From positions 859 to 64,858 of the forward strand of contig JAFSLP010000088.1 in assembly GCA_017448345.1 (NCBI GenBank): a DNA stretch of 64,000 nucleotides, in the 5' to 3' direction. Positions within the stretch are counted from its first letter, which is position 1. Every line of letters starts with the position of its first letter. The notes beneath the pieces are model-generated. The model had not been told where the DNA came from and made no database searches. It saw only the letters and a program-made list of their open reading frames with translations. The translations under genes were made by a program, and so were the position numbers. This document shows, in pieces, positions 2,750-59,306 of the stretch. The stretch is from Paludibacteraceae bacterium. Its GTDB lineage: Bacteria > Bacteroidota > Bacteroidia > Bacteroidales > Paludibacteraceae.

Positions 2750-3265
2750 TTATTTTATTTTGAGTTTATCTATCGCACAACGAATCACCATGAACAGCGC
2801 ACCATATATAAAAGCGTATATGTGCAGGGGCGTGTTGCTATTCCCCACGAAGCACTGTATTCCAATGGCTATCGCTACATATATATAATTTTTCAGTTGC
2901 CTGACGGTAGGGTTTAGCACCAGTATCATGCCGAGCATGGCAAATATCAGACCGGATGCGCCGACAGTAGGTATCTCGGCTGATGCACAAAGACCGGCGA
3001 GTGTCGCTGCGGCAAACATTCCGAAATCGACACGCTCATCCCCAAAGCGGGTAACGCTTAATGCCAGCACTCGCTTGTACAATATGACATATGCAATACA
3101 GTTAATGACAAGGTGAGACCAGGAAGAGTGAGCGAAGTGATAGGTAAGACATCCCCATAGATGCTCATTGCTCACACCCATAGCATATAACGTTTCTTCC
3201 CCGAGTACTATGTATAGCAACAGGCAGAGCGTTATAAAGAAGCATGTCTTGAAGATTCTCTGCAT
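2750..3265 (-). CDS. Rhomboid-family intramembrane serine protease (171 aa, compact)
   Basis: It has the HxxxxHxxxN motif (HFAHSSWSHLVIN), the catalytic GxSG motif (VGASGLIFAMLG) and a distal His in a TM helix (TPLHIYAFIYG). Multiple hydrophobic helices are present. Confidence 0.7.
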   Translation of the reverse strand: MQRIFKTCFFITLCLLLYIVLGEETLYAMGVSNEHLWGCLTYHFAHSSWSHLVINCIAYVILYKRVLALSVTRFGDERVDFGMFAAATLAGLCASAEIPTVGASGLIFAMLGMILVLNPTVRQLKNYIYVAIAIGIQCFVGNSNTPLHIYAFIYGALFMVIRCAIDKLKIK

Positions 3266-3694: not shown

Positions 3695-3726
3695 CAAAGA
3701 TACTACTTTTTTGGCAAACTGCCAAA
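3695..3726 (-). promoter_or_regulatory. Minus-strand consensus promoter (TTTG-N20-TATCTTTG) for the 3.7-1.2 kb leftward operon
   Basis: The reverse complement of 3695-3702 is TATCTTTG, and the reverse complement of 3723-3726 is TTTG. It is divergent from the late promoter at 3822. Confidence 0.55.
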
Positions 3727-10024: not shown

Positions 10025-11053
10025 ATGGATTACAAATTATTCAGAGGTTTCATAAACCGCAAAGGAGAAAAATGCGTAGTTGCCGGAGGTAGCAACGGTG
10101 AAGGTGGTCCTGATTATAACAAAGCAGACAAGGTGTCTGAGGCAACAGCAGGCAATTTGGCTGGTCTGGATGAGAACGGAAACCTGACGGACTCCGGCAA
10201 GAAAGCGTCTGACTTTGCCGAGGCGGAGCATGAGCATAACGGCTATGCACCTACGAGCCATCAGCACAACATTGGTGATATCACCGGACTTGAAAGTGCT
10301 CTGTCAAAAAGAGTAAGCAAACAGGATGATATATTGTGTATCGTTATGGGCCGTGCATGGCATTATGCATGGGAAGACACCGGTCTTGCAGAAGAGACTC
10401 TTGGTCAGATACTGGCTCTCTCTCCAACCCCGCACACACCAGCAGTATGTATGGTAAATATCACAGACAGAAATAACGCTGTGCATCGTTGTTTGGGTCT
10501 TGTCGAGTGGAATAAAACAATTACTGAAAACAATGGTCATACCACCGCCGAATATAGTATTTGGCTACATATAGGTGCCACTACTCTGACAGGTGTGATT
10601 TATGCATACGATGATGGTTTCAACGGCTATTCTATGCGAGAGTATTTTGGTGTTGCAGGTGATGATTTGGTTTTCAATTTCAAAAGTCAATTGGATTCCA
10701 AGATGCCCAAGACGGCGCAAGAGGTTTCTTTCAGCGCCGGTCAGTCTCTTAATGAATTGCTGCCATTGAATAATACAGGACAATTCACTAATCTATGGTT
10801 ATATAATTCGGAAGATGCATTGCTGCCTGTTGTGGCGCATGTGACTAAAATCAACCGTACCAACGACGTGCATGGTTTCTTCGTCTGCGGCAGAGTAGGT
10901 CATTATCCATTTATGGTATTCTACTTTGGCAACTATCGCTTCTATTTCACAGCCAATGAAGATGCTGATGAACTTGGTCACGGAGAAGTCGAACCGAGTG
11001 CTGTGCAATGGGATTTGACTGTAAGCAGCATGGATAACCTATTGACTTTATAA
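10025..11053 (+). CDS. Fibre-like protein (342 aa)
   Basis: The N-terminal KVSEATAGNLAGLDENGNLTDSGKKASDFAEAEH motif is shared with the 12197-12667 product. Confidence 0.55.
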   Translation: MDYKLFRGFINRKGEKCVVAGGSNGEGGPDYNKADKVSEATAGNLAGLDENGNLTDSGKKASDFAEAEHEHNGYAPTSHQHNIGDITGLESALSKRVSKQDDILCIVMGRAWHYAWEDTGLAEETLGQILALSPTPHTPAVCMVNITDRNNAVHRCLGLVEWNKTITENNGHTTAEYSIWLHIGATTLTGVIYAYDDGFNGYSMREYFGVAGDDLVFNFKSQLDSKMPKTAQEVSFSAGQSLNELLPLNNTGQFTNLWLYNSEDALLPVVAHVTKINRTNDVHGFFVCGRVGHYPFMVFYFGNYRFYFTANEDADELGHGEVEPSAVQWDLTVSSMDNLLTL

Positions 11054-12196: not shown

Positions 12197-12667
12197 ATGA
12201 AAGTATTAGATTTGACAGGCCTTAGTTCGTATGATGCGAAGATTAAGGCGTACGTGGACGCGAAAGCAGCGGAGGCTGCGAGTGGCAAAGTCACGATGGT
12301 AGCGGTCAATGCTTTGCCTGCTGTGGCAGAAGCGAGTGCCAATGTTATCTATCTCGTGCCGAACACGAAAGTGAGCGGCAGCAATGTCAAGGATGAATAT
12401 ATCCTTGTGAACGGCGCATTCGAGCTGATTGGTACTACGCAGATTGACTTGGACGGCAAAGCAGATAAGGTCAGCGGTGCGACTGCCGGTCACTTGGCTG
12501 GTCTGGACGCGAACGGCAACCTTACGGACAGCGGCAAGAGCGCCAGCGATTTCGCTACGGCAGCGCAAGGTGCGAAAGCAGACACGGCATTGCAGCCTGC
12601 GGACATCGTGGCTATCACGACGAGCGAGATTGATGCTCTGTTCCCGAGTGGAAATGCGCAATCGTAA
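12197..12667 (+). CDS. Fibre-like protein (156 aa)
   Basis: It carries the KVSGATAGHLAGLDANGNLTDSGKSASDFATAAQ motif, a paralogue of the motif in 10025-11053. Confidence 0.55.
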   Translation: MKVLDLTGLSSYDAKIKAYVDAKAAEAASGKVTMVAVNALPAVAEASANVIYLVPNTKVSGSNVKDEYILVNGAFELIGTTQIDLDGKADKVSGATAGHLAGLDANGNLTDSGKSASDFATAAQGAKADTALQPADIVAITTSEIDALFPSGNAQS

Positions 12668-13053: not shown

Positions 13054-13686
13054 ATGGCAGTAACAGTAGCAACCCCTGCGAACCTCAATGAGTTCGCGCA
13101 AAAATTAGGACAGAGCCTTGCAGAGCAAGGTGGTGGTGGAAGCGGAGACAGCAACTTCGTCTTCATAGATAGTTTCATCAAAAAAGACTCGGCAGTTGAT
13201 GACGGCAAGCCGCATCTGTATCTCGTTATAGACAGCAGTATCGACTTGACCGATGTTACCTTGCGCTATTGTCGCAAAGGCAGAGTTAATTGCCGTCGTA
13301 AAGAGAACAGTCCGTACCATCAGAATGAGTCGGGGCAGAAAGCACACACGGCAGGTTGGCACCAAGTATGGCAGTTGCCGTTGCATACGACCAAAACCCC
13401 GCTTATCGTGCCTGTTTTCGTGTCCTTAACCCCTGCATTTACCTTGGGTGGCAACGCCTATTACGAGATTACGGTAGGAGAGTACGACACGATGTACGAT
13501 TTCGCCAATGACAGCGAGTTCGACACTACATACAGAGACGAGAACGGCGACCCGATTTCCATTGGAACTATCTTACGCAAGCAAGGTGGCGTGTGCTTGG
13601 TGCGCGATGGCGTACAAATTAGCAATTTTGCACACTTCCGTACCTCGTACAACGAAAATAATGATGAATGGTGCATTGGTAGATAA
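13054..13686 (+). CDS. Hypothetical structural protein (210 aa)
   Basis: ORF in the fibre region. No motif recognised. Confidence 0.5.
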   Translation: MAVTVATPANLNEFAQKLGQSLAEQGGGGSGDSNFVFIDSFIKKDSAVDDGKPHLYLVIDSSIDLTDVTLRYCRKGRVNCRRKENSPYHQNESGQKAHTAGWHQVWQLPLHTTKTPLIVPVFVSLTPAFTLGGNAYYEITVGEYDTMYDFANDSEFDTTYRDENGDPISIGTILRKQGGVCLVRDGVQISNFAHFRTSYNENNDEWCIGR

Positions 13687-13772: not shown

Positions 13773-13804
13773 CAAAGGTACAACTTTTTTTCGAAACCAC
13801 CAAA
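13773..13804 (-). promoter_or_regulatory. Orphan antisense consensus promoter inside the late operon
   Basis: The reverse complement gives TTTG (13801-13804)-N20-TACCTTTG (13773-13780). It points into the 3' end of the + strand gene 13054-13686, and no credible minus-strand ORF lies downstream. Confidence 0.45.
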
Positions 13805-13819: not shown

Positions 13820-14236
13820 ATGACAAAAATCGTCAAAAAAAGTTTTATGGAGCGTTTTTTCTCCGAAATTATGGAGGTAACACGCTATTTGATAGGCATT
13901 CGGTCGAAGAATGACAAGAAAGTTCTGCGTTCCGAGATGGCTGCTGACAAGGCAGAGCTGAATGCCACCATTGCAGCGAACAAAGCCACCGCTGATGCAC
14001 AAGCTGCGTCGGCAAACAGGCGTTTGACTGCCTGCGAGAACAAAGAAGCCGAGTTAGAACAGCGGATTGGTGAGGATGAAGAGGTTATCGGTCAAGCTTT
14101 AGGCGCATTGCAGAAAACTCTTGACACCGAAGAGGATGGAACTATCCGTTTTGAGGGTACAAATTACCTTGATGACTGTACTACTATCAAAGCGGCGCTT
14201 ATCAAACTGGATGAAGTCATTGCAAATAATATCTAA
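13820..14236 (+). CDS. Coiled-coil fibre shaft-like protein (138 aa)
   Basis: The sequence is heptad-like and Ala/Glu/Lys-rich, and the gene lies directly upstream of DGR target 1. Confidence 0.5.
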   Translation: MTKIVKKSFMERFFSEIMEVTRYLIGIRSKNDKKVLRSEMAADKAELNATIAANKATADAQAASANRRLTACENKEAELEQRIGEDEEVIGQALGALQKTLDTEEDGTIRFEGTNYLDDCTTIKAALIKLDEVIANNI

Positions 14237-14241: not shown

Positions 14242-15369
14242 ATGGATATAAGACGAGTTAAACATTTCAACACCGAAGCGGAGTTTCTTACCAACCGCTG
14301 TGTGTTACCTATCCCCAGCGTTGCCTATTGCAAGGCGACCGGGGAGTTATACTTCCGAAAGAAGACCAAATTGCTGCCCGGACATATTGTTTTATGGGAT
14401 GAAGATGAGAGCAAGCGCATATATGTTCTGCCGTCCGAGTATAACGGTACGACCTATCCCACCTCGCGCTATATTCCGGAAGGTATCATAGCCATTCCGG
14501 AGCAGTTCACTCCGGATGGTCGTGCCGTGATGATAAGCCTTGTGAACATGTCTTGCGAAACACCTGAAACCGGCAAAGCAAGCAACAGCGCGGAATGGTT
14601 TGACGACTATGCGGACATCTACTTGCGTTGGGGTGGCTACAGCAACGAGAATAACGATTGGATATATGATGATATTCCCGGATTAGAAAACTTCGGCAAT
14701 CGCAAGAATGCTTTTGTTCTGCCAAATGGTAGCGTATCCGGCGGAGACGCATGGGGGTATCTACCGAGCGACAGTTATCATGCGTCATTCGTAGATAGCG
14801 AGGAGGACAATGCCGCCGATGCTGGTACGCATTGGTACGCAGGACTGTCTGGTTATCGTCTTCCGAGTCCGTTCGATGCTCTCTATGGGCATAATCCGCA
14901 GTATGGCTTCAATGGTAAAGACCATCAGAAATCTTTCCTGTCAGACCTTGACGGCTACGCCAACACGCAAGTATTGCTTGACCGTGAGATTTATCAGCCT
15001 GACTGGGAGACTGATAGCAAGATTGTCAATCTCTATAATGGAGATTTCAGAGAGCACCACCCTGCGGCACTCTGTTGCGCCCGGTATCATGTGGGTGGCA
15101 CGGAGGCGGGCGACTGGTATCTTCCGGCTATCGGTGAACTGGGTTGCGTGATGCCGAGGTTCAGTCTTATCCAAGCAGCGTTAGAGGCTGTTGCGGCGGT
15201 AGATTCGAGCCGTGCTGTTCCCTTGGTTGAGTCGGGCAACTATTGGTCTTCTACGGAGCATAGTCAGGACATCGCTTACAACTTGAACACGAGCAATGGT
15301 AACGTGTACAACGACAGTAAGAGCAACGACAAGTTGGTTCGGGCGTTCTGCCGTCTCCCCCGCATTTAA
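14242..15369 (+). CDS. DGR target protein 1, probable receptor-binding fibre tip with a DUF1566/C-type-lectin-fold-like C-terminus (375 aa)
   Basis: The last ~50 codons are VR1. The C-terminus reads ...GDWYLPAIGEL...YWSSTEHSQDIAYNLNTSNGNVYNDSKSNDKLVRAFCRLPRI. It is paralogous to the C-terminus of 43775-44938. Confidence 0.8.
   Translation: MDIRRVKHFNTEAEFLTNRCVLPIPSVAYCKATGELYFRKKTKLLPGHIVLWDEDESKRIYVLPSEYNGTTYPTSRYIPEGIIAIPEQFTPDGRAVMISLVNMSCETPETGKASNSAEWFDDYADIYLRWGGYSNENNDWIYDDIPGLENFGNRKNAFVLPNGSVSGGDAWGYLPSDSYHASFVDSEEDNAADAGTHWYAGLSGYRLPSPFDALYGHNPQYGFNGKDHQKSFLSDLDGYANTQVLLDREIYQPDWETDSKIVNLYNGDFREHHPAALCCARYHVGGTEAGDWYLPAIGELGCVMPRFSLIQAALEAVAAVDSSRAVPLVESGNYWSSTEHSQDIAYNLNTSNGNVYNDSKSNDKLVRAFCRLPRI
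15214..15364 (+). repeat. DGR variable repeat VR1 (151 bp)
   Basis: It is co-linear with the TR at offset 804. There are 13 differences, 12 at TR adenines (AAC/AAT codons) and one T-to-G at 15333. Confidence 0.9.
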
Positions 15370-15392
15370 TCTGAATTTGAAACTTAATATCT

Positions 15393-15416
15393 CTGTCCGC
15401 GCCTGTGCGCGGGCAG
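15393..15416 (+). promoter_or_regulatory. GC-rich hairpin 28 nt downstream of VR1 (DGR target-recognition-type hairpin)
   Basis: Structure ctgtccgcgc-ctgt-gcgcgggcag: a 10-bp stem with one G-U and a 4-nt loop, with no T-tract after it. Confidence 0.6.
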
Positions 15417-15435
15417 GGGCAAAACATTAAATAGT

Positions 15436-15906
15436 ATGGCTGAAAAAGAAAGTAAAGCGCCGAAGATACGCGAGGAAAAGGCTATCGAGGCGACATCCAT
15501 CTTCCGCCAAGCAGAGAACTTGGAGCGTGAGACGGACATGATTATCCAGAACATGCCAGCGCGAACGTACTGGCGATGCGGCAAACCATTTGAGGAAGCA
15601 TTGATTAGTGCCCGTGAGAACTACGCGATGTGCTACCGTCACGAGAAAGGCGACAACAGCGCATTGAAAGTGGAGTACGCACGCAAAGCCGCAGAAGCAT
15701 TCACGCAGGTTGATTTGGTGTTCCGCAAGTGGTATCGCGGCACGCAAGTACCGCCATCCCACAACGTAGTGAACGCCAAGCGTCATGGACAATTATCTCT
15801 CATCATCGGCGAACTGTTGAGCGCAAGTTGGGCTTTCTACCATTCCTTATTGCAAAAACAAGACAGAGCAGATAGCGCCTCTACCAAGCCAGCAGATAAT
15901 GAATAA
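15436..15906 (+). CDS. avd: Putative DGR accessory variability determinant (Avd-like, 156 aa)
   Basis: Small, basic and predicted helical. It occupies the slot between the VR and the TR, as avd does in BPP-1-type DGRs. No motif was verified. Confidence 0.55.
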   Translation: MAEKESKAPKIREEKAIEATSIFRQAENLERETDMIIQNMPARTYWRCGKPFEEALISARENYAMCYRHEKGDNSALKVEYARKAAEAFTQVDLVFRKWYRGTQVPPSHNVVNAKRHGQLSLIIGELLSASWAFYHSLLQKQDRADSASTKPADNE

Positions 15907-16017
15907 TTATTAGCGACGAGGTGGATGATGTGAACCGATAGATTAAATGGGTGGCACACTCCAAGCGGAGTAATGACAGGGTTGGAACACACTCTGCAAG
16001 ATGTCACTAAACCGGTT

Positions 16018-16168
16018 GCTGTTCCCTTGAATGAGTCGAACAACTATTGGTCTTCTACGGAGCATAGTCAGAACAACGCTTACAACTTGAACACGAACAA
16101 TGGTAACGTGAACAACAACAATAAGAACAACAACAATTTGGTTCGGGCGTTCTGCCGTCTCCCCCGCA
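16018..16168 (+). repeat. DGR template repeat (TR, 151 bp)
   Basis: The adenine-rich invariant copy, read in the VR frame as ...NESNNYWSSTEHSQNNAYNLNTNNGNVNNNNKNNNNLVRAFCRLPR. It matches both VR1 and VR2. Confidence 0.9.
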
Positions 16169-16217
16169 CTTGGTCGGGTTCACGACAGCCACCTATCTAC
16201 TCTATCTTGTTTTTGTT

Positions 16218-17408
16218 ATGTTTGTTGAATACGAGGAACTATACAAGGCGTACCTTGATTGCAGAAAACACAAACGCGGCAGCGCCAACTGCCAAGCATT
16301 TGAAATAGACGTTACGAGGAACCTCTACTTGCTGTGGAAAGACCTCAATAACGGCACTTATAAAATAGGACGGTCGATAGCGTTCATCGTCCATCACCCG
16401 AAAGACAGAGAGGTGTTTGCTGCGGATTTCCGCGACAGGATAGTACACCATCTGATTATACGGAGACTTGAAAGACTGTTAGACGAGGAGTTTATCGAAG
16501 ACTCGTACTCATGCCGCAAGGGTAAAGGCACGCTCTATGGCATCCGTCGATGCGAAGAGCAGATGCGGGAGTGCAGCAATAACTTCACCGAGACCTGCTA
16601 CATTCTCAAAGGCGACCTGAAGAGTTTCTTCGTGACCATCTGCAAGAGCCTGCTGTATGCACGCATCTGCCGGATGATTGAGGAGAAAGGCGGTTATGAC
16701 GAGGAGACACAGAACTTCATGGAGCACATCATCAGTCTGATTGTGTTCAACCGTCCGCAAGACAACTGCATCTTCAAGCAACCGCTATCCGAATGGAGTT
16801 GTCTGCCCAAAGACAAGAGTCTGCGGTTCTGCGATGATGACCACGGTCTGCCGATAGGCAACCTGACAAGCCAGATATTTGCCAATCTGTTCCTGTCAGA
16901 CTTTGACCACTTTGTCAAGAAAGTATTAGGTTTCCTATACTACGGCAGGTATGTAGATGATTTCTACATCATCTGCAAGGACAAAGAGGCGTTGATACAA
17001 GCCATCGAGAAGATAAAGGCATACCTTGCGGAGATAGGTGTAACGCTGCACCCGAAGAAGATATACATTCAGGAGGTGAAGAAAGGCGTTCAGTTCCTCG
17101 GTCAGAACATCAAACCGTTCGGTACGCTGATAGCGAGAAAGTCCATTGGCAACCTGTGTGCCAAGTTGTATGATTTCAACCGCTTCGTGATGTGGCACGA
17201 GACGAACGAAAAGGACATTGACCGCAGGGATATGGAGTATATCATCAGCAGTATCAACTCGTACTACGGTTATATGCGTCAAGCAAAGAGTTACAAGGAG
17301 CGCAAGAAAGTAGCGCACTCGCAAGTGATACAACCGCTACTGGACTATGCACACTTTGACAAAGACTATACAAAACTGATTATTAACGATTGCAAACAAG
17401 CAGCTTAA
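16218..17408 (+). CDS. DGR reverse transcriptase (396 aa from the ATG at 16218)
   Basis: It has the YVDD catalytic motif (GRYVDDFYII) and LPIGNLTSQIFANLFL, the DGR-RT signature I/LGxxxSQ. It lies immediately downstream of the TR. The ORF-track TTG at 16170 overlaps the TR end and is unlikely to be the start. Confidence 0.9.
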   Translation: MFVEYEELYKAYLDCRKHKRGSANCQAFEIDVTRNLYLLWKDLNNGTYKIGRSIAFIVHHPKDREVFAADFRDRIVHHLIIRRLERLLDEEFIEDSYSCRKGKGTLYGIRRCEEQMRECSNNFTETCYILKGDLKSFFVTICKSLLYARICRMIEEKGGYDEETQNFMEHIISLIVFNRPQDNCIFKQPLSEWSCLPKDKSLRFCDDDHGLPIGNLTSQIFANLFLSDFDHFVKKVLGFLYYGRYVDDFYIICKDKEALIQAIEKIKAYLAEIGVTLHPKKIYIQEVKKGVQFLGQNIKPFGTLIARKSIGNLCAKLYDFNRFVMWHETNEKDIDRRDMEYIISSINSYYGYMRQAKSYKERKKVAHSQVIQPLLDYAHFDKDYTKLIINDCKQAA

Positions 17409-28218: not shown

Positions 28219-31200
28219 ATGGCACAGATTACACAAGAGACGCTTAATGATATGATTGCTACCGTTAACGCGGGCAAGCAATATGATATGCAGACTTGGC
28301 ATCAGAAATTCCCAGAGTTCGGAGGGGATGATGCCCTTGTGCAGTCTGCTATGGATTATGTGGCTACATATAACTCCGGTAAATATAATACGACCGAGGA
28401 GTTAAATGCCCAGTTCCCGGAGTTCTTTACAGGTGGTGAGCAGTCCGATTCCTTCATGTCATTTTTAGCAGGACAAGAGCCTGTTATTCCTAATTTCTGG
28501 CAACAGACGACAGAGCGAGTTATCGGAAAAGAGGAAGACATCATGTCGGACGACGCAAAGAAGCGTCTTCCGAAAGGTTATATGGTGCTCAATGACGATG
28601 AACGCAGGAAAGCAGAACAAAAGGCTATTCAGGAACAACTCGCTTATGACCAGATGAGTTTTGTAGAACGCGAGTCGCAGTTGCCAGTACTGGGTGCGAT
28701 GGATTTGATGCGCCAGCGTGTGGATAGCAATAACCGTATTCGCCGCGCCAACACAAAGACACCTGAAGAGTTGTTCACGGTAGCGTTAGCGTCATGGCAG
28801 AAGACGAACGAGGGTATTCACCGTTCGGCGCAGTACGAGCGTGATTTGCAGGAAGCCATCGCCAAGTTCCAAAAAGACAAGCAAAAAGAGTTCTCGTCTG
28901 ATATTGCCGTCAATGCTATTATTCGGAACGCCAAGGCAGGCAAGATTACGAAAGAGCAGGCGGAACAGCAATTACAGTCCATTTGGGAAGCCAAATATAG
29001 CGAGGAACTGGCCACGTTGCTGCAACCTATCCAAGAAACCTTCCAACAGGATTTCTATAATGCCAACCAGCGCGTACTGGATGAAGAGGTGAACCGTCTT
29101 GCCGGAGAGGAACTGACACGAGATATTGCCAAAACCCAATCGAAATTCGCTGCATTGGATAAGAAATGGTCTAACGAGATATATGAGGCGACTGGTGCCG
29201 GAAAGGGTATCGGTCTCGGCGCAATAGCATATTCCCGCATGCCGGCGAAAACGGCGAACAGTAGTCCGAAAGTTCAGGCAGCGAAGACGCTCACATCAAG
29301 AGCAAAAGAGCTACAAGAGGCAGCTCTGAAAAACAAAGGTTTCGGAAGCGCATTCGGTAGTACTATTACCGATATAAGTACATGGGATTTCGGTTTGACC
29401 GATTTCAATGTAGCTCTTGGAATCAATGTGCTTGTTCGAAAGATTGAGCGCGACGAGGAGTTGGATGATTATGATAAAGTAGAACTTGATGCTATCTTGG
29501 AATATATGGCAGCACAAGCCATGTACTCCGGTCAATTAGGCAGATGGTACAAGGCAGGAACGACTACTGCGCAGGCAGTGCCATTCATGTTAGAGTTTTT
29601 GCTTATGCCGATTGACAGTATCAAGAATGCAACCGTCAAAGCCATGTTCAAATACGGTCTGAAAAAATATGGCATCAAGCAAGGTACACGCAAGGCAGTA
29701 GACCTTGGTATTTCAGCAATGGGTCGTTTCGCCGGTTCAATGGCAGCGGCAGGCCTGATGACCGTTACTTTTGATACTCCAAAGGTTATGGCCGGTACGA
29801 TAGAGCGCACGACCGGAACTGTCAATGCCCCGGATTTGTTGAATGATGGTCTGCAATATACAGGACGAACCGGGCAACAGGGATTAGCAGAGGCGGCGTA
29901 CAACGCCACGGTGGATAAATACATTGAAAACCTGAGCGAGATGATATTATCCGACCTTGCTCCTGCTTTGAAACTCGCAGGTATGTCAAAGATATTCCGT
30001 CGTGTAGGCGGACAGAAAGCGCTTGATATTGTGCGCAAACTGACGATGGATAACAAGGTAGCAGGAGCATTACGCACGATGCAGACCGGTGATATCTTTG
30101 AGGAGTTTGCAGAAGAGGAGGTTGGCAACCTACTCAAATGGTGGTTGAGTACCGATGTTTCAGCCGCCGAGGGCAATACCGGCTTCGATGCCGATTCGCA
30201 GATAGACACTATCTTGGGTCTTATCCCTATGCAGGCTGCGTTCGGTGTCGGCAAAGCAGGTGCGGCTACCATCAACTTTGCCAAAGGCAAGAAGATGTGG
30301 TCTGATTACCGCAGCCACCTGACCGAACAAGGGCAGCAACTTCTTGGTTCGTTCATGGAGGCAAAGACCGATGAAGAAGCCAAAGAAGCATTGAGTGCTT
30401 TGCTGCATCAGATGAGGACCGAGGATAATATGGATGCGGAAATGAAAGAGGATTTCCTGCATAGTGTTCTTGGTGAATACCAGAGCAAGTATGCCGAGTA
30501 TAGCGCCGAGGAAGAGAAAGAAGAAGGACAGGCATCCGCCGAGCAAGAAGAGCAAGCGGAGGTTCCGGCTAACGAGGAGGAGGGTCAGATACAAGACAAT
30601 GGTACGGAACACCCGACCGAAGAAGAAACAACGGTGGAGGTGGAGACTGCCGAGCCTGTACAGGAAAAGGCGCGTCCTGTTACCGTGGTGATTGACGGCG
30701 TTGAGCAGCAGATTACTTTCTCCGGTTCTAAAATCGTGTATAATGCCGATGGCAGTATCAACCACGACAAGAGCGGACAGATTTATCTCCAAGATGCAGA
30801 CGGTCACCTTGTCCCAGGAAGCCAGCAAGAGGAGATGTCAGAGGCATTAGATGCGGCGTTACGCCAAGAGAAGCAGAACGGAGACGAGTTACTGAAGAAT
30901 GACATGCCAATAGAAGAGGTTGCCGAGGAAACGCCAGCGACCGAGGAGGCACCAGTTACCGAGGAAAGTTCGGCAACTGAACAATCCGCCTATCCATTAC
31001 TGGAAGACGGTACACCTGACTTTGCTCAGATGACACCCGAGCAGCAGGTAGCATACGCTATGGAAACCGGCGGCGAGGAAGCAGCAGCGGAAACCATACA
31101 GACAGCCATCGAGGAACTGACTTCTGAAATGGAGAGCGTAGGCAAGAAGAAGGGACTTGTACCCGCACAGCGCGTAGCGGAAAAGAACCGCATCCGTCAA

Positions 31201-34200
31201 GAGATTGCGGCGTGGCAAGCATTGGCACAACCGCAAGAGAGCGCACCTGCGCAAACAGACATACGTCCGGTAGGTATTAGTGACTTCGGTCCTATATATG
31301 ACCAGTTCAGAGGCAAGCCGCAAGAGGCTATTGCTTTCCTGATGGAAAGACAGGACGGTGAGTGTATAGGCGCATTGAGTCACCCGGAGATTGGTCCGAT
31401 TGATTTGGTATGGGGAGTAGAGGGAACAGGCGGTAGTGACGGTTTTGGATTATCCAAACTTGTCAAGTTCCACCCGGAGGTATTGGATAACCTGCAAGGC
31501 ATCTTGGACGAAATGCACGTAACGCTTCGCTCCGAGAATCGCATCCAATTAGAGAGCGAACGCTATAGGGCAGGTGTCCGGCTCACATGGAACAATGAGA
31601 GCAAGACATGGTTGCTTACTGCATTTGAGAAAGAAGAATATAAAGAAAACAGTGCCCTCGACAAGACGACAGACACTGACGAGACCGCCAACGGCGGCGA
31701 GGGGAGTGACACAGCTCTTCCCCAGAACACTATTTCCGGCGACAAAGGTACAACAAAAAATCCAGATACGCAAATTTCCGGCGAAGAAAATGCAGAAAAA
31801 GTGGATTTGAGTGCTGAAAATGTAGTTTTGATGTACTATAATAAAGGCAGCAGGTATGTTTTCTGCCGCAAGGAAGAAGACGGAACCATGATTCGTCTCG
31901 ACACTGGCAAGCCTTTGGAGACCACTCGCAATGGTAAGGAGACCGCATGGAGGGAAGCAGACCGAAAAGTCGTTCTTATCGACGGCGTGCCGTACTATAT
32001 GCTTGGTAGCAATCCCAACTCGACTACCGTCAATGTTGTTCCTGTGGAGGCAAGCATGCCGGTTATCACAAGTACAGGCGAGAATAGTAGCGTTATTGCT
32101 GTAGAGAAAGGTGCACTTACCGACGAAAAAGGCAAACGTATTTTCCGCAATGCAGAAGACAACCGTGAGGAGCAGTATAAGACCTTGCGCAGAGAAGCGA
32201 AGACGCTGGACGATATAGCCGATTATGTGGTGTTTGACTACATGAAAGACGGTGAGAAGAAAGCGATTACTCTTCGCGATTTACTGCGTATGTTCAGTAC
32301 GGTAGATGAGGATATGAACCGCATCTATATCGGTGACAAGCGCTATGGCGGGGAAATGGATAGGTTGCTTTCTGAAATGGGCAAGGATATGGAAGAGCGC
32401 TCGGATGTAGAGGAGATTCTGAATGAGCGTATTAGCGAAGCGGCTATTGTATGGAACACGATGGCGGAGGATGGCGAGAAAGTCAAAGACAAACAAACTC
32501 TTCCGAAGAAGATTCGTGCCTTTATCGAAGTGCTTGACAAACGCGGCTGGGCGGAAAAGGCGGATTACTTTGCCGGTCGTGTTGCTTCTGAACAACAGCC
32601 GTCCGAGGAACAGGAGCAGAAACCGAAAGTCAGCAAGCGCATAGCGACGGACGAGGATATGCAGACCTTGGCGGACTTGAACTATGACTTGCGTGATGCC
32701 GAGCGTGCAGGCGATTATGCCGAAGCGGACAGGATTAAACAAGAGATTGCGTCCTTGCGCGAACAGATAATCGAGTACAACATCGGTAATACCGCCATAG
32801 ATGAAGCTGCCGGTCGCCGCACCATCGGCTATCTGCGCAATGCCGGTGTCGATATTGAGGAGATTAGCCAAGACGCGGCAGAGCAGATGATGGACGATGA
32901 GACAGTAGAACAACTGCGGTCGTCGGACAGTACCGTATATGGCTTTACGCAAGGAGACAAGATATATGTCATCAGCGGCAAACTCAACCCGAATACACCA
33001 GTTCACGAATACACGCACCTTTGGGCGAGAGCCTTTGCCAAAGCCAACCCGAAGAAATGGTCTTCCATCGTGAACACTCTCAAACAAACTCCAACGTGGG
33101 CGGAGGTAGAGGCTGATGCCAACTATGCATCTATCCACGGAAACGAGCAGGCGATAGCAAGCGAGGTTCTTGCGCGTCTGACCGGTGAATACTGGGGGCA
33201 GATAGACGAGAACGGCAAGAGCAAGATGGATGAGACTTTTGAAAAAAAGGCTCTTCTTGTGCGTGTGCGCTCCGCTCTACGCTCTTTCTGGCAGCAGGTG
33301 GGAGAATGGTTAGGTATCAAGACCAGCGCTCGTATAAGTGACTTTGAGGGTCAGTTGCAAGCCTTGGTACGTCGTCCGATACGAGACCTGATTGAGACGG
33401 ATTTCGATAAAAAATTCCAAAAAATGCAGGAAGGTCTTGACAACGGGGGTGAAAATGTATTATCTTTGCAGTCGATTTCAGAATTAACCGACGCATTAGA
33501 AGATGATATACGACAAGGAAACAAACCAGTGGTATTTGAACGAGTTCCACTTGCAGCAATGCAAGAGGGCTTGCGCAACGAACGAACGCTTACGGAAGCG
33601 CTTGCCATTGTCGCACTCAGAAGTCGCCGCCAACATCGCGCGTATATTCGAGACGGACAAGAAGTAACAGCCGAAGAAAAGAACAGCCGTGACGGGTCTA
33701 ATAATGAAATGCTATTAGACCTGATTCAGTATGCCAAAGAGAAAGGCATGTGGGTGGAAGATGTGGTTGAGACGCTGGATGAGAAATACGGTTTCGACAA
33801 CCGCGTGGAGAATATGCCGGATGGTGAAGCGACCGGAGAGAGCCATGTATGGATAGACAAAGAGAACGGTGTCGTTATCAAGGCGAAAGCCGACTACCAA
33901 TACGAGACCATAGAAGAGTTGTTGGAGGGCATGATGCTTAACAACTGGCTATTCAAAGGCAACAGGCAGCATATCATCGGCTTTGGTATAGACCGTTCGG
34001 AGGGGCGTGATGCAATCCGTGTGATATATGAAACGCCATACGTCGAGAAGCATGAAAGCAAACCGCTCACCCAGGAGGAGAAAGACCGATATATGGCTGC
34101 TTACGGTTTCACCAAGGCAGACAGCCCTATCACGACAGAGCGAAAGGGAGAAAAATCCAACTACACCAATGGTGAGTTTATGGTAGCAGACCTCCACAAT

Positions 34201-37200
34201 CAGAATATCTTCTGGGATGCGGACGGCGATGTCCGTTGTATAGACCCCATTGTCAAGTGGGAAGCAGGAGAGCACTATCAGGTGCAGACTCCAGAGCAGA
34301 AAGAGCGTGACGAATGGAATGAGAGCCGGTTGGACGAAATGTTTGACGGCCAGTCAGAGTATCAGATATTCACAGAGGAGAAACAGCCTGCTCATGCAGA
34401 GCCGATGAGTTGGCTGCAACGTAAGGTGAACGCAGCTGCCGACCAAGCGAACGGCATCCGTGTCATGCAGCAAGAGATTGAGCGTATAACAGGACGCAAG
34501 ATTACGTATGACAAAGACGTACGTGAAGCGCTTGAACACTCGTCGAGTATCATCGACCAAGCATTGAAGCGTTTTGAGAAAGGACCACAGCGACGGCTTG
34601 ACAAGGCTATGCGTAACATTCGCAAGCAGATTAAGAAAAGCGGTTTGTGGAAGAAAGGTATGTCTGATGTATACGAGAACAAAGGCATACCTGTTACGCT
34701 CACTCCAAGTGCGCAAGATATACTGGAGCGCTATATGATGGCAAAAGACAACCTTGAACGTATCGAGTTTGGAACAGAACCGCGTATGCACGAGTTAGCT
34801 GTCCGTCTGCGCCAACAGATGAACATAGATGCAGAGGGCGAAATGGAAGATGCAGATGTGCTGTCTGCATACGTTGAGCAGTTTGAATCACAGTTCAAGG
34901 AAAGCGAGATAGCCGGCTTATGGAAAGCCATCAACGAGTGTACTGATTTTGGTCTTGACTGGCTGCTGAAAGGCGGTGTTATTGGTAAGGATTATTACGA
35001 GCGTTTGAAACAACGCAGGCATTACATTCCGGAGCGTGGTTTCGCACAACTACAGACGAATGAGGAACTGCGCGACGAGATAGACAACCGCAAGCGCGGA
35101 AACCGCAATGGCGGTAAGCCAATGGCGACGCAGGCGGCTCATGGTGGCGAGAGTATGGCGACCGACGTGATTGCCTATATGCTAATGCTCAACGCCAATT
35201 CTGTGCAGGTGAGCCAAGAGAATACCGTCAAGCGTGCGATGTTCAATCTGATGCAAGAGAACCTTGATGCCTGTCAGCAGATGGGCTATCCTGTTCCGCA
35301 GCAAGTATGGTACATCCGTGACGGTGTGGACGAAGACGGCAACCCTCGCTACAAGGCTTCGATGGAACAGCCGTCGGAAGAAATGCAAGCGCAGAACGAT
35401 GCAGTCAAAGAGCGCATCAGAGACCTGCAAGAAGACCTGCGTATGTTCGGTAAGGATAATGCGGAGATGAAAGCCCATATCCAGTCACTTATTGATGAAA
35501 CGAAGAAAGAGTTGCTTATCGTGCAGAAGCGCGATGCCGGAGCCGCAAGCGTTGATGTAGCGATGCTTGCCGGTGAGGAGGTGCCCAAAGTAGTTGTAAG
35601 CGTACCTACGGAAGACGGTGATGTTGCCCAATATATAATGCAGTTCCCAGCACGTCACGAGATAGCGAACGCATTGAACGGCATTACAGGAACGAAATGG
35701 GAGGATAAATTGCAGAAGATGATAGGCTCAAATATCAGTGCCCTGTACACGGTATATAACCCTACTTTCTTTGCGACGAACCTACCGCGAGACATTGAAT
35801 GGATTATTGCGAAAGGTTCTGCCGAGCGCGGTATGTTATATCCGGCGTTCTTTGCTGCTCAAATGGCACGACCTGCTACCACCATACTACCGATACTGGA
35901 ATATGTGTCTGGTGTTGATGTGGACGGTCGAACAGGTGGCAGCACATTGAGCGATGCATTCACTACAGACGGAACGATAGAACACGAGTTCTACCAATTC
36001 CTTAACGGCGGTGGTAATACCGGGTACACGCAGATGAACAACATTCAGAAGTTCCGTAAGAAAGTGGAGCGAATGACGGAAGGTCCTCGTCCTGTCAAGG
36101 CTACGATGCGTTTCCTCTTTGCGGAGGTTGCGCCAGCCATCAATGAGTTCTCGGAGTTATGGACTCGTTTTGCAGTATATCGTGCAACGAAAGCGATGCT
36201 ACATAGCGAGAATGCAACTATTCGCAGAAACAAACCGATGAGCGAAGAGCAGATAGAGGCAGAAGCTTTGCATGACGCAAAGAATTTTTCCACGAACTTC
36301 AACCGTAAAGGCGCAGGAGGCTTCATTAACTTCTTCAACTCATTGAGTATGTTCAGCAACGCCGCCATTCAGGGTGTGTCCGGCGCGATACGTACATTCG
36401 AGAACCCGAAGAAAGCAATCAGAGGAGCAGCTTCTATTATGATACTCCCAGCGTTTATCGGCTGGATGTGTACCATGCTGTCTCCGGATGATGATGATGA
36501 GGGTTTTGTTATTCCATCCTTCATGCGTGAGAACAACCTTATCTTTATGGATAAACGTGTACCATTGTCGCAAGAGCTGATTCCGTGGTACCGCATAGGT
36601 GTCAATTATGCGCTTATGCAACAGGGCAGGCGAACCAAAGAGCAGGCAATAGAGAATATCGGTATGGGATTTGCCGAGCACGGAATGCCCGTTCCTCCAG
36701 TTATCGGTTCTGCTCTATCCACCGGTATAGATTGGATAATGGACGATGACGATGATTATAGCGACAAAGAGACGCGATTAGTGAGTGCTATGACGCAACT
36801 CATGTACGCCCAATATCTCGGTAATCTGCATCAGTTGGAACAGAACAAGAACTGGGCAGGTTCCAATCTCCGCAATGAGTTTGCACAGGGCAGACCGCAA
36901 TACCTCTTCGGACAGAATGAGTCGGAACTGTTCCAAGACTTGGCGAAACTCCAATACCGGCTTGCAGGCGGAGATATGAATGTTCCGCAGAACACCAAGA
37001 GTGGCAGTCTCAAAAAGATGAATGAGTTCGAGGACATCAACCCGAAAGAGATACGCGCCTATTTGAGCACTATTGTTCCGAGCGGATGGGTAGATATTGC
37101 AACCTATGCGTACAGCGGTATCTTCGGAGACGAAGAGCCGAGGGGAAAAGACAAGCCTATAGTCAATAAGTTCCTTATCAACACAGACCGAGACGTGTTT

Positions 37201-37773
37201 GAATACTCCGTTACCAAGGAGCTGAAAGCTATGATTAAGGCCTATGATGAGAAGATGAAATCTCTTGAGAATATCTACAAAGGCTACACTGGAGAACAAT
37301 TGAGTGCGGCAGATAGACGACTTGGTGAGGTTCTTGAAGCCACCTATGGTATGAGTTATGAAGAGTGCAGAAGATACATTGAGGAAGAAATATCCAAAAA
37401 TGGCAACGATGCTGCTCTGGAAGCATACTTAACTTTTGGTGTAAATCTTGCAGAGAAAGATTGGAACAACAAAGTAAATGCGAACTGGAGGGCTCTCACA
37501 GACGCTTATACAAAATTGAGTATCTATAGTAAGGGAATAAAGCAGGGGAAAAGTGAAAGAGAGTTCATCCGTGGCATTGAAGCAGAGACCGGCATAAAAC
37601 TCGACGAGCACACATCACTTAATGAGGCTCGTAAGATATTAACAGCCATGATGTTAAGTGAGATAATGCGAGTAAAGGGTATTGAGCACACTATACCCGA
37701 TGTACAAAAGTGGATGCTTGACCAGCCGTGGCTTCCTGCGACAGAACGAGCAAGAAAGTCTGTGAAAAAGTAG
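28219..37773 (+). CDS. Giant multidomain (polyvalent-type) virion protein, 3184 aa
   Basis: A single uninterrupted 9.55-kb ORF. It has Gly/Ala-rich membrane-like segments near the N-terminus and near residue 2730, and long acidic linkers. Recognisable motifs are the zincin HEYTH at 33004-33018 and a kinase-like module with VVIKAK ... ADLHNQNIFWDADGDVRCID at 33814-34263. Confidence 0.85.
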   Translation: MAQITQETLNDMIATVNAGKQYDMQTWHQKFPEFGGDDALVQSAMDYVATYNSGKYNTTEELNAQFPEFFTGGEQSDSFMSFLAGQEPVIPNFWQQTTERVIGKEEDIMSDDAKKRLPKGYMVLNDDERRKAEQKAIQEQLAYDQMSFVERESQLPVLGAMDLMRQRVDSNNRIRRANTKTPEELFTVALASWQKTNEGIHRSAQYERDLQEAIAKFQKDKQKEFSSDIAVNAIIRNAKAGKITKEQAEQQLQSIWEAKYSEELATLLQPIQETFQQDFYNANQRVLDEEVNRLAGEELTRDIAKTQSKFAALDKKWSNEIYEATGAGKGIGLGAIAYSRMPAKTANSSPKVQAAKTLTSRAKELQEAALKNKGFGSAFGSTITDISTWDFGLTDFNVALGINVLVRKIERDEELDDYDKVELDAILEYMAAQAMYSGQLGRWYKAGTTTAQAVPFMLEFLLMPIDSIKNATVKAMFKYGLKKYGIKQGTRKAVDLGISAMGRFAGSMAAAGLMTVTFDTPKVMAGTIERTTGTVNAPDLLNDGLQYTGRTGQQGLAEAAYNATVDKYIENLSEMILSDLAPALKLAGMSKIFRRVGGQKALDIVRKLTMDNKVAGALRTMQTGDIFEEFAEEEVGNLLKWWLSTDVSAAEGNTGFDADSQIDTILGLIPMQAAFGVGKAGAATINFAKGKKMWSDYRSHLTEQGQQLLGSFMEAKTDEEAKEALSALLHQMRTEDNMDAEMKEDFLHSVLGEYQSKYAEYSAEEEKEEGQASAEQEEQAEVPANEEEGQIQDNGTEHPTEEETTVEVETAEPVQEKARPVTVVIDGVEQQITFSGSKIVYNADGSINHDKSGQIYLQDADGHLVPGSQQEEMSEALDAALRQEKQNGDELLKNDMPIEEVAEETPATEEAPVTEESSATEQSAYPLLEDGTPDFAQMTPEQQVAYAMETGGEEAAAETIQTAIEELTSEMESVGKKKGLVPAQRVAEKNRIRQEIAAWQALAQPQESAPAQTDIRPVGISDFGPIYDQFRGKPQEAIAFLMERQDGECIGALSHPEIGPIDLVWGVEGTGGSDGFGLSKLVKFHPEVLDNLQGILDEMHVTLRSENRIQLESERYRAGVRLTWNNESKTWLLTAFEKEEYKENSALDKTTDTDETANGGEGSDTALPQNTISGDKGTTKNPDTQISGEENAEKVDLSAENVVLMYYNKGSRYVFCRKEEDGTMIRLDTGKPLETTRNGKETAWREADRKVVLIDGVPYYMLGSNPNSTTVNVVPVEASMPVITSTGENSSVIAVEKGALTDEKGKRIFRNAEDNREEQYKTLRREAKTLDDIADYVVFDYMKDGEKKAITLRDLLRMFSTVDEDMNRIYIGDKRYGGEMDRLLSEMGKDMEERSDVEEILNERISEAAIVWNTMAEDGEKVKDKQTLPKKIRAFIEVLDKRGWAEKADYFAGRVASEQQPSEEQEQKPKVSKRIATDEDMQTLADLNYDLRDAERAGDYAEADRIKQEIASLREQIIEYNIGNTAIDEAAGRRTIGYLRNAGVDIEEISQDAAEQMMDDETVEQLRSSDSTVYGFTQGDKIYVISGKLNPNTPVHEYTHLWARAFAKANPKKWSSIVNTLKQTPTWAEVEADANYASIHGNEQAIASEVLARLTGEYWGQIDENGKSKMDETFEKKALLVRVRSALRSFWQQVGEWLGIKTSARISDFEGQLQALVRRPIRDLIETDFDKKFQKMQEGLDNGGENVLSLQSISELTDALEDDIRQGNKPVVFERVPLAAMQEGLRNERTLTEALAIVALRSRRQHRAYIRDGQEVTAEEKNSRDGSNNEMLLDLIQYAKEKGMWVEDVVETLDEKYGFDNRVENMPDGEATGESHVWIDKENGVVIKAKADYQYETIEELLEGMMLNNWLFKGNRQHIIGFGIDRSEGRDAIRVIYETPYVEKHESKPLTQEEKDRYMAAYGFTKADSPITTERKGEKSNYTNGEFMVADLHNQNIFWDADGDVRCIDPIVKWEAGEHYQVQTPEQKERDEWNESRLDEMFDGQSEYQIFTEEKQPAHAEPMSWLQRKVNAAADQANGIRVMQQEIERITGRKITYDKDVREALEHSSSIIDQALKRFEKGPQRRLDKAMRNIRKQIKKSGLWKKGMSDVYENKGIPVTLTPSAQDILERYMMAKDNLERIEFGTEPRMHELAVRLRQQMNIDAEGEMEDADVLSAYVEQFESQFKESEIAGLWKAINECTDFGLDWLLKGGVIGKDYYERLKQRRHYIPERGFAQLQTNEELRDEIDNRKRGNRNGGKPMATQAAHGGESMATDVIAYMLMLNANSVQVSQENTVKRAMFNLMQENLDACQQMGYPVPQQVWYIRDGVDEDGNPRYKASMEQPSEEMQAQNDAVKERIRDLQEDLRMFGKDNAEMKAHIQSLIDETKKELLIVQKRDAGAASVDVAMLAGEEVPKVVVSVPTEDGDVAQYIMQFPARHEIANALNGITGTKWEDKLQKMIGSNISALYTVYNPTFFATNLPRDIEWIIAKGSAERGMLYPAFFAAQMARPATTILPILEYVSGVDVDGRTGGSTLSDAFTTDGTIEHEFYQFLNGGGNTGYTQMNNIQKFRKKVERMTEGPRPVKATMRFLFAEVAPAINEFSELWTRFAVYRATKAMLHSENATIRRNKPMSEEQIEAEALHDAKNFSTNFNRKGAGGFINFFNSLSMFSNAAIQGVSGAIRTFENPKKAIRGAASIMILPAFIGWMCTMLSPDDDDEGFVIPSFMRENNLIFMDKRVPLSQELIPWYRIGVNYALMQQGRRTKEQAIENIGMGFAEHGMPVPPVIGSALSTGIDWIMDDDDDYSDKETRLVSAMTQLMYAQYLGNLHQLEQNKNWAGSNLRNEFAQGRPQYLFGQNESELFQDLAKLQYRLAGGDMNVPQNTKSGSLKKMNEFEDINPKEIRAYLSTIVPSGWVDIATYAYSGIFGDEEPRGKDKPIVNKFLINTDRDVFEYSVTKELKAMIKAYDEKMKSLENIYKGYTGEQLSAADRRLGEVLEATYGMSYEECRRYIEEEISKNGNDAALEAYLTFGVNLAEKDWNNKVNANWRALTDAYTKLSIYSKGIKQGKSEREFIRGIEAETGIKLDEHTSLNEARKILTAMMLSEIMRVKGIEHTIPDVQKWMLDQPWLPATERARKSVKK

Positions 37774-37811: not shown

Positions 37812-37842
37812 TTTGTATATTTGGAAAAAAAGTAGTAACTTT
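37812..37842 (+). promoter_or_regulatory. Plus-strand promoter for the 38056 membrane-protein moron
   Basis: TTTG (37812-37815)-N19-TAACTTTG (37835-37842) within AGTAGTAACTTTGCAGCG. It leaves a leader of about 200 nt before the ATG. Confidence 0.5.
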
Positions 37843-38055
37843 GCAGCGGAATTGAGAGAAATCAGTTCCGTTGTTTAGTATTGCTCCGTTCTTCTTTCCG
37901 AAATCTACCAAGTTTTTAACACCGAGGAACGGCATATTATCAACTACACATGTATAGTGGTAGTTTAGGTGTGCTGTAGAGGCTGTTTAGGTAGGGCAAT
38001 GATAGGGTCTGGAGACAATCTATACCATTTTTGTTATACCAAAATCACATAAGCA

Positions 38056-43725: not shown

Positions 43726-43752
43726 CCCTGCGTGCTGTCAGAGCACGCAGGG
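43726..43752 (-). promoter_or_regulatory. GC-rich hairpin 27 nt downstream of VR2 (DGR target-recognition-type hairpin)
   Basis: The minus strand reads ccctgcgtgct-ctgac-agcacgcaggg (11-bp stem, 5-nt loop), with no T-tract after it. Confidence 0.6.
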
Positions 43753-44938: not shown

Positions 44939-45148
44939 ACTAAATCTGATTTGATGGGGTTGATATTTATTGCTTGAATAGTTTGCATGCTGGAGTGCCG
45001 CGAATGATGCTCACTTCGCCGTTACGGTAGTGAGGGCAGCGGATGAAGATGTATTGTCTATCAGGGGTCATATACCGCTCATCTTCTTTCCACTTTTTTT
45101 AACTTGCATTCATCGCATATATGTTGTACCTTGGGAGGTAGGTTTTGT

Positions 45149-50665: not shown

Positions 50666-50938
50666 TTAGATGATTAAAGATAGATACTCAGTCTCGGAAT
50701 AGACGATGCGGCTCATGGTGTCCGCGTCTGTTTCCAAGCGGTGTGGTGTTAAATGACCATCCCGAATAAGGCGGTCGATAGTTCCTCGCCCATGACGGCG
50801 TTGCATTTCCGTGCGGGTATAGTACTCACGCACCGGAAGCCCTGCCATTTGGAGTGCCTGATGTGCTCCGAGTTGGGCAGCCTGACGCAGATTTTCACGA
50901 AATCTTTCCTCGGTCAGTTGAATTACTACTGTTTCCAT
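50666..50938 (-). CDS. Excisionase/AlpA-type helix-turn-helix protein (90 aa); first gene of a leftward early operon
   Basis: EYYTRTEMQRRHGRGTIDRLIRDGHLTPHRL resembles the HTH_17/excisionase pattern. It is divergent from the 50938-50969 promoter. Confidence 0.5.
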   Translation of the reverse strand: METVVIQLTEERFRENLRQAAQLGAHQALQMAGLPVREYYTRTEMQRRHGRGTIDRLIRDGHLTPHRLETDADTMSRIVYSETEYLSLII

Positions 50939-50969
50939 TTGGATATTTGAAAAAAAAGTTGTACCTTTG
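50938..50969 (+). promoter_or_regulatory. Plus-strand consensus promoter (TTTG-N20-TACCTTTG)
   Basis: TTTG at 50938-50941 and TACCTTTG at 50962-50969. It lies in a divergent region with the leftward early operon. Confidence 0.6.
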
Positions 50970-55752: not shown

Positions 55753-55905
55753 ATTACCTGCTCTGAACCGGCAGAAAGCCGACCAACCACTCGCGTCCTA
55801 CCGACCTGTTGCTTCTACCAATTCAGTACGAACAGCTTGCGCCTCCTGATTGCGGTTTCCACTCATTCGCCAAAGCCTTGTCCGTTGGTCGGCGCTGCCA
55901 GTCTA

Positions 55906-57001: not shown

Positions 57002-57007
57002 AATCAC

Positions 57008-59299: not shown

Positions 59300-59306
59300 A
59301 TTTTGT

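Follow-up and report, generated by a model that had tools for sequence, protein, structure and literature searches.

A probable diversity-generating retroelement with two lectin-like targets in a prophage of Paludibacteraceae

Does a prophage of the Paludibacteraceae, a family that is little studied and that, to our knowledge, seems to be without a cultured phage-host system, rewrite its own genes by reverse transcription? The question is raised by a stretch of 64,000 nucleotides (GenBank assembly GCA_017448345.1, contig JAFSLP010000088.1, positions 859 to 64,858 of the forward strand), here called the window, with all coordinates counted from its first letter; it holds an integrated prophage within a Paludibacteraceae metagenome-assembled genome, from an uncultured gut bacterium of the Bacteroidales. 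In this stretch, a first-pass annotation made from the sequence alone had proposed a complete diversity-generating retroelement (DGR) cassette: a reverse transcriptase (RT) of the DGR clade, a template repeat (TR) and a variable repeat (VR) that differ specifically at adenines, and a VR located at the 3' end of a lectin-like target gene. All of these parts were recovered in our analysis, and the element is with very high probability a phage-borne DGR of the common target-avd-TR-RT type, exhibiting two targets within one prophage, the first adjacent and the second not; we also consider it very likely that this DGR has recently diversified both targets. The NCBI annotation misses the element, with the RT and the accessory gene both entered as 'hypothetical protein'.

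The assignment is carried by three copies of a 151-bp repeat. The TR (16018-16168, plus strand) contains 48 adenines and is rich in Asn codons, whilst VR1 (15214-15364, plus strand) and VR2 (43780-43930, minus strand) form the 3' ends of target gene 1 (375 aa) and target gene 2 (387 aa), respectively. Alignment confirmed that TR and VR1 are co-linear over 151 bp, and free of gaps; a recount of their 13 differences again placed 12 at TR adenines, the remaining one being a T>G change at TR position 16137 (enrichment at A by Fisher's exact test, p=3.7e-6). VR2, which had been mentioned before without coordinates, was located by a repeat scan of the whole window at a distance of 27.6 kb from the TR: here 13 of the 13 differences fall on TR adenines (Fisher p=9.6e-8), giving 25 of 26 mismatches at TR adenines when both VRs are pooled. 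Read in the target frame, the TR translates as AVPLNESNNYWSSTEHSQNNAYNLNTNNGNVNNNNKNNNNLVRAFCRLPR, the Asn-rich template previously described, with 18 AAY codons (14 AAC and 4 AAT). The 48 adenines among its 151 bases are distributed over codon positions 1, 2 and 3 as 23, 25 and 0, and a stop can be reached via adenine changes from a single TR codon (AAG); the stop codon of both targets is found 5 nt past the end of the VR.

A likeness between TR and VRs could also arise by ordinary duplication or gene conversion of paralogous C-termini, with no reverse transcription involved, and the fact that the targets are paralogues (40% identity) makes a shared C-terminal sequence unsurprising. Such a process does not account for 25 of 26 differences being at adenines of the non-coding copy (p ~1e-6 to 1e-7), for the lack of any TR adenine at the third codon position, for a third copy that is non-coding and immediately precedes an RT of DGR type, or for population variation that is limited to adenine-templated codons (see below). 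Because the differences are adenine-specific, we regard duplication as effectively refuted, its residual probability being minute.

The RT (16218-17408, plus strand, 396 aa) provides the second line of evidence. Its start was taken as the ATG at 16218 rather than the TTG at 16170, since the 396-aa product of the ATG is on record in 23 contigs. The open reading frame (ORF) downstream of the TR had been read as an RT with a YVDD box and an IGNLTSQ motif, and this holds: IGNLTSQ occupies residues 213-219 and YVDD residues 245-248, with profile matches to Pfam RVT_1 (1.2e-20) and to PHROG 1423 'reverse transcriptase' (1.1e-94). The signature of DGR RTs is [I/V/L]GxxxSQ (PMC7826257). Amongst solved structures, the closest relative is Brt from phage BPP-1 (8ub7_A, E 9.5e-28), followed by a group II intron RT (1.2e-9), which places the protein in the DGR clade; in a pairwise alignment, R64 and I213 align with Arg74 and Ile181 of Brt, residues shown to promote adenine mutagenesis (PMC7826257). 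The nearest phage RTs are 40-49% identical, and the motif positions are unchanged in the RTs of two divergent related loci (L013 and L015). When compared to BPP-1 Brt, the RT also exhibits an insertion of ~39 aa (residues 155-193, window ~16680-16796), located between palm motifs and before IGNLTSQ.

The ends of the repeats differ between template and targets. The last stretch common to TR and VRs is ...CTCCCCCGCA and the GC-rich shared 3' end of the repeat is ...GGGCGTTCTGCCGTCTCCCCCGCA; after this end of homology, VR1 and VR2 both read TTTAATCTG, whilst the TR reads CTTGGTCGG. The VR-specific TTTAATCTG (15365-15373, plus strand, in the case of VR1) lies just past the TR homology, contains the stop codon and can serve as a marker of the side of the IMH (initiation of mutagenic homing); TTTAATCT is also present after the VRs of L013 and L015. 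The flanks of VR1, VR2 and TR are thereby in agreement with the earlier proposal that homology stops after the GC-rich tract and that VR and TR sequences then diverge in the manner of an IMH/IMH* pair.

Beyond these ends, a DNA fold predicts a GC-rich hairpin after each VR: the one after VR1 (15391-15418, plus strand) has a 12-bp stem, a 4-nt loop and a 26-nt spacer, and the one after VR2 (43726-43752, minus strand) an 11-bp stem, a 5-nt loop and a 27-nt spacer, with z-scores against shuffled sequences of -1.65 and -3.7, respectively. No comparable hairpin was obtained in the DNA fold downstream of the TR. L013 and L015 exhibit hairpins at about equal distance with other stem sequences, with compensatory changes in 6 of 12 pairs. 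In BPP-1, efficient homing depends on a stem-forming structure past the VR, and the stem tolerates sequence variation (PMC3240598). It is conceivable that the hairpins are mere terminators of the target genes that play no part in retrohoming, given that both are intergenic and just past a stop codon and that the VR1 hairpin reaches a z of only -1.65; on the other hand, the two are equally spaced (26-27 nt) from the end of TR homology at two unlinked targets, neither is followed by a T-run, and the VR1 hairpin is inside the cassette, where a terminator would require read-through transcription for the accessory gene and RT to be expressed. Both L013 and L015 furthermore keep the structure while its sequence has changed, a pattern known from DGR targets (PMC3240598), and terminator and homing roles can coexist. 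We therefore hold a pure terminator function to be possible but the less probable reading, and a role of the hairpins in retrohoming, as in BPP-1, to be the better explanation.

Is the element more than a relic? The population data available are consensus assemblies from separate samples, obtained by exact-protein look-ups as public metagenomic contigs, and target alleles were drawn from 90%-identity clusters with 6 members for target 1 and 14 members for target 2. (Some of the sample names resemble those of ruminant-gut metagenome sets, by name alone.) No related locus departs from the TR sequence (100% identity), not even L004 and L005, two loci in which the DNA around the cassette is ~95% identical to the window and which are mosaic elsewhere; in these, VR1 has 23 and 22 differences from the TR, respectively, all of them at TR adenines. 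Distinct VR peptides were found in 6 of 6 members for VR1 and 12 of 14 for VR2, 18 alleles in total. Variable columns are concentrated in the VRs of both proteins: 21 of 50 in the VR versus 21 of 325 outside for target 1, and 23 of 50 versus 20 of 337 for target 2. Almost all variable VR columns (43 of 44) are situated on A-containing TR codons, and of the 272 residues at odds with the one encoded by the TR, 270 can be produced by substitutions at adenines alone. The clearest cases are two pairs of alleles, one per target (P0004/P0006 for target 1 and P0010/P0011 for target 2): within each pair, the proteins are identical outside the VR, and yet 16 of the 50 VR residues differ. The two-target layout also recurs in relatives, with a 65,367-bp and a 65,180-bp contig each carrying alleles of both targets, and the divergent loci with the same layout have A-biased TR/VR pairs of their own (13 of 13 mismatches at A in L013, 12 of 14 in L015). 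Taken together, the invariant TR, the diversity of VR alleles, the adenine-only changes and the flank-identical allele pairs show, as far as alleles can record it, that both VRs have recently and repeatedly been rewritten from adenine-templated positions in this phage lineage. The variation anticipated by the first-pass annotation, namely in codons opposite TR adenines, is hence what the public assemblies exhibit for both targets.

Several observations weigh against an active DGR of this type. The strain of the window (at least 99.9% identical, in at least 7 samples) shares one VR1 and one VR2 consensus everywhere; ongoing diversification in that strain is therefore likely rather than demonstrated. 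One protein (P0019) has the VR2 of the window despite two changes elsewhere in its sequence, the single non-adenine T>G change in VR1 would be erased by a fresh homing event, and in one relative contig (9,220 bp; P0027, P0028, P0002) the RT is split into pieces of 164 aa and 229 aa. A strict promoter scan found no consensus Bacteroidota-type plus-strand promoter next to the cassette, and sequence does not place the accessory protein with Avd, a point to which we return below. The uniform VRs (identical in the same-strain loci L001-L003 and L006-L010 from different samples), the persistence of the VR2 allele in P0019, the T>G difference and the split RT would all be compatible with a DGR that is real but frozen or decaying in this prophage strain, so that its VR alleles are historical. 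We judge this to be quite unlikely: the RT gene is uninterrupted, keeps every catalytic and DGR motif and recurs without change in 23 contigs, the TR shows perfect conservation, and close relatives provide allele pairs for both targets with 0 changes outside the VR but 16 differing VR residues. In addition, minority alleles are hidden by consensus assemblies, and rare homing is expected in lysogens. In case of the split RT, the pieces are 99.6-100% identical to the RT of the window and adjoin a distinct VR1 allele; the split could represent an inactivation or frameshift, or else an assembly error. Judged from these sequences, current DGR activity in the window's own strain remains the likely state.

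What, then, does the element diversify? Target gene 1 (14242-15369, plus strand) ends in ...LVRAFCRLPRI and carries VR1 in a C-terminal C-type-lectin/Lcl_C (DUF1566) domain. Target gene 2 (43775-44938, minus strand) encodes a paralogue that is 40% identical to target 1 over 321 aa, with unrelated N-termini. NCBI names both a DUF1566 domain-containing protein, and both match Pfam Lcl_C (PF07603), target 1 at E=3.5e-7 (30.9 bits) and target 2 at 1.4e-5 (25.8 bits), in each case below the gathering score of 34.9. An AF2 model of target 1 computed from a 37-sequence alignment reached a pLDDT (predicted local distance difference test) of 89.7 and a pTM (predicted template modelling score) of 0.86. 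In Foldseek searches, the C-terminal domain of this model matched the C-terminal domain of Legionella Lcl (8q4e; 26% identity, root-mean-square deviation 3.0 Å, 91 columns); the model also matched many C-type lectin-like domains, with the Bacteroides fimbrial protein 4eps as the top PDB match, and, among predicted viral structures, phage DUF1566 proteins and a 'tail fiber protein' (E 5e-10 to 1e-6). From the model we are confident that the C-terminus of target 1 adopts a C-type-lectin/Lcl_C-like fold, and the earlier description of VR1 as the C-terminus of a 375-aa target with a DUF1566/CLec fold is borne out.

The genomic settings of the two targets are different. Target 1 belongs to a late structural block with the order capsid - portal - target - terminase, whilst target 2 is found on the opposite strand, outside this block and among DNA-metabolism genes, with HTH_39, NUMOD4/HNH, N6_N4_Mtase, Dam, Sak, PDDEXK and ArdA as neighbours. 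The cassette had originally been placed in a 'fibre module': the late structural block and the matches of the target fold to tail-fibre proteins speak for this, but the evidence for fibre genes upstream consists of one weak match (E 9e-4), and we consider the label plausible for the target 1 region. In the virion, both targets most likely serve in receptor binding or adhesion. An ORF of 138 aa (13820-14236, plus strand) immediately precedes target 1, is next to it in relatives too and has no Pfam, NCBIfam or PHROG match; as a homologue of the target 2 N-terminus it was rejected, the comparison being negative. Further upstream, a 111-nt direct repeat (71% identity) at 10120-10230 and 12457-12567 encodes a shared peptide, ATAGNLAGLDENGNLTDSGK..SDFA, in ORFs of 342 aa and 156 aa. 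The weak match mentioned above neighbours this repeat: residues 67-100 of the 342-aa ORF match a 'tail collar fibers gp4' chain (9d93).

The remaining component is the accessory ORF (15436-15906, plus strand, 156 aa), which occupies the position of avd and for which AF2 predicts a four-helix bundle (helices 10-39, 42-68, 75-102 and 114-149; pLDDT 72, pTM 0.66). It had been described as a small, basic, helical avd: the position and the helical nature stand, but the protein is only mildly basic (isoelectric point (pI) 8.5, as against ~9.5 for BPP-1 Avd and for bAvd of Bacteroides phage F2) and it fails all sequence models of Avd. There is no Pfam or NCBIfam match at E<=0.1, including bAvd PF22296 and PF05635, and no PHROG match; hhalign probabilities were 0.4% for F2 bAvd and 0.1% for BPP-1 Avd; PDB sequences searched with a profile of the accessory family yielded only chance matches to nanobodies; and tblastn against phages returned noise only (E >= 1). 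The family is small, with 8 clusters in a word-indexed search, and its distant members P0090 and P0092 have no Pfam match either. In 1.84 billion representatives, an exhaustive search with the profile turned up only 6 proteins, none of them bridging to Avd; one of the 6 (P0093) was rejected as a spurious repetitive match. When the model was compared with the whole PDB using Foldseek, the best matches, all weak, were 2gsc, 2rld (PF05635-type bundles), 8ub7_C and 4dwl (Avd), with target-normalised TM-scores of 0.55-0.63 and E-values of only 0.045-1. Helical bundles match promiscuously in fold searches.

These results leave room for an alternative in which the 156-aa ORF is an unrelated phage gene that happens to sit between target and TR, and the DGR has no accessory gene (Wu et al. 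2018, architecture A); that survey puts DGRs without accessory genes at 29% (PMC5758913). The failure of bAvd, PF05635, NCBIfam and PHROG models, the hhalign probabilities below 1%, a Foldseek E-value no better than 0.045 for a promiscuous fold and a pI below that of true Avds all point in this direction. Nevertheless, the ORF always lies between the Lcl_C target and TR-RT in every family member with readable context, and the target-ORF-TR-RT order is retained in every relative, down to L013, whose accessory protein and RT are 28% and 65% identical to those of the window. The few profile matches among 1.84 billion representatives likewise lie in such cassettes wherever their context can be read, and the PDB structures that rank highest in the fold search are Avd and bundles of the PF05635 type. 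We thus consider an accessory-less DGR rather unlikely and favour a DGR-related role of the 156-aa protein, for which its conserved position is the strongest argument. The protein may be an Avd that has diverged past the point of sequence detection or an independent replacement by another four-helix bundle. Likewise, given its place on the opposite strand in a DNA-metabolism block, target 2 may be a diversified lectin with another role, for example an alternative adhesin. That the accessory protein represents a previously unrecognised DGR accessory family, and that target 2 is a diversified lectin outside the fibre, are tentative proposals to which we give a low probability. Were the former true, some of the DGRs scored as 'accessory-less' may carry hidden analogues of Avd.

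Put together, the components would operate as follows. The TR would be transcribed, probably within a long late plus-strand transcript, and the RT, probably with the four-helix-bundle accessory protein, would copy TR RNA into cDNA whilst misincorporating opposite adenines, by analogy with BPP-1. The cDNA would then replace VR1 or VR2, presumably guided by the GC-rich 3' end common to the repeats, the sequence specific to the VRs and the hairpin beyond it. In two paralogous proteins, a surface patch of ~40 residues on the C-type-lectin domain could thereby take up to ~10^27 forms. In this scheme, cDNA synthesis, retrohoming, the roles of accessory protein and hairpins, and the function of either target as a receptor-binding protein of the virion are inferred.

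The surrounding prophage supplies the context for these events. Contigs of ~65 kb recur, which suggests a prophage genome size of ~65 kb. Phage sequence extends to the left end of the window. The late plus-strand block comprises, in order, an SU10-type capsid, a P22-type portal, ORFs of unknown function, target 1, the accessory ORF, TR, RT, small membrane proteins, DUF5675, RusA and the large terminase; the terminase is followed by a 1404-aa ORF for which PDB and Pfam gave no informative match. At the end of this block, an ORF of 3184 aa (28219-37773, plus strand) with PBECR1 and Kinase-PolyVal domains encodes a 'polyvalent protein', which in L007 is called as two genes of 1280 aa and at least 1882 aa. 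The right prophage border is marked by a tyrosine integrase (Arm-DNA-bind_5 and Phage_int_SAM_5; 59900-61150, minus strand) next to a tRNA-Met/Ser/Val cluster (59088-59378, minus strand), and host genes are found from ~61.9 kb (61958-63977, minus strand: a GHL10 glycoside-hydrolase-like protein and a RecF/SMC-like ORF). A further tRNA-Glu (55717-55806, minus strand) was predicted by ARAGORN but has no counterpart in the Rfam results. Rfam returned no match within the DGR cassette; elsewhere it identified a full-length Pistol self-cleaving ribozyme (RF02679; 56348-56422, minus strand; 55.8 bits versus a gathering score of 34.5) in the minus-strand early region, just downstream of the ORF at 56429-57007. 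Also on the minus strand are a rhomboid-domain protein and a protein with both crAss001_48-like and N4 gp49-like domains, encoded at 2750-3265 and 1212-1748, respectively.

The gap before the 138-aa ORF and target 1 contains a strong Bacteroidota-type promoter (TTTG-N20-TACCTTTG; 13773-13804, minus strand) that points away from target 1 and is antisense to the end of the ORF at 13054-13686; a weaker look-alike at 45096-45137 has the same divergent arrangement upstream of target 2. Near-identical promoter-like elements occur at 1113-1144, 3695-3726, 31743-31774 and 37812-37843, with more of the same family at 50938-50969, 58220-58251, 59847-59878 and 61891-61922. Their common pattern is TTTG at -33 and TAnnTTTG at -7 with an A/T-rich spacer, and most are found directly upstream of genes on the matching strand; it is because these elements recur that the window displays the repeat families D1, D3 and I3-I9.

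The locus thus offers a cleanly documented DGR with two targets, apparently active, in a temperate Paludibacteraceae phage. Such a DGR could act as a natural marker of phage-host dynamics in gut metagenomes, and the Avd-position protein is a concrete case of a component missed by family models, which bears on counts of 'accessory-less' DGRs. Knowledge of how DGRs work is unchanged by this element.

How does it compare with systems that are already known? The prototype, BPP-1 (mtd-avd-TR-brt), has the same gene order, including small membrane proteins after the RT, and its RT is homologous to the one described here (26% identity, E 1e-31), sharing PIGxLTSQ(I/L)FAN and the equivalents of Arg74 and Ile181; in both, the VR is at the 3' end of a target with C-type-lectin fold and is followed by a hairpin (PMC3240598). 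In contrast to BPP-1, the target here is of the DUF1566/Lcl_C rather than the Mtd type (with Mtd 1yu4, the match reaches only E 0.4), the accessory protein has no detectable homology to Avd, the RT carries the insertion at residues 155-193 that is absent from Brt, and a second target is present 27.6 kb away; furthermore, the hairpin follows a spacer of 26-27 nt, whereas that of BPP-1 is in the 24 bp immediately downstream of the VR. The phages F1, F2 and F4 of Bacteroides uniformis (Bacuni) share the host phylum, the target (Lcl_C)-avd-TR-RT layout and a hairpin after the VR, and their RTs are 40-42% identical to that of the window. However, their phage backbones differ, with no DNA match, the accessory protein of F2 is a clear bAvd (PF22296, 4.7e-36), which the ORF of the window is not, and one Lcl_C target is seen in ~5 kb on each side of the F2 RT as opposed to the two targets found here. 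Megablast of the cassette against INPHARED phages gave no match, and neither did scans of IMG/VR with an A-to-N degenerate VR/TR pattern and with RT peptides.

Within the DGR survey of Wu et al. 2018 (PMC5758913), architecture B (avd-TR-RT) accounts for 68% and category 'd' (DUF1566/CLec2 target) for 14%, and targets that are not adjacent but lie within 50 kb of the element, in one prophage with it, are described as common. The element agrees with architecture B in its avd-TR-RT core, its upstream DUF1566/CLec2 target and its non-adjacent prophage target, but differs in that its putative Avd is unrecognisable by sequence, such that an automated survey could score it as accessory-less. DGRs of gut phages in which one TR serves two C-lectin targets have also been described (Baykov et al. 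2023, PMC10743442), and the present element resembles these in serving both targets from one TR in one phage genome; while theirs differ in topology (tentaclins with Ig domains), the two targets here are paralogues built alike, with the N-terminus as their main difference. Seen against these systems, the element is a well-supported and ordinary further example of a known DGR system, the only unusual feature of which is the protein in the Avd position.

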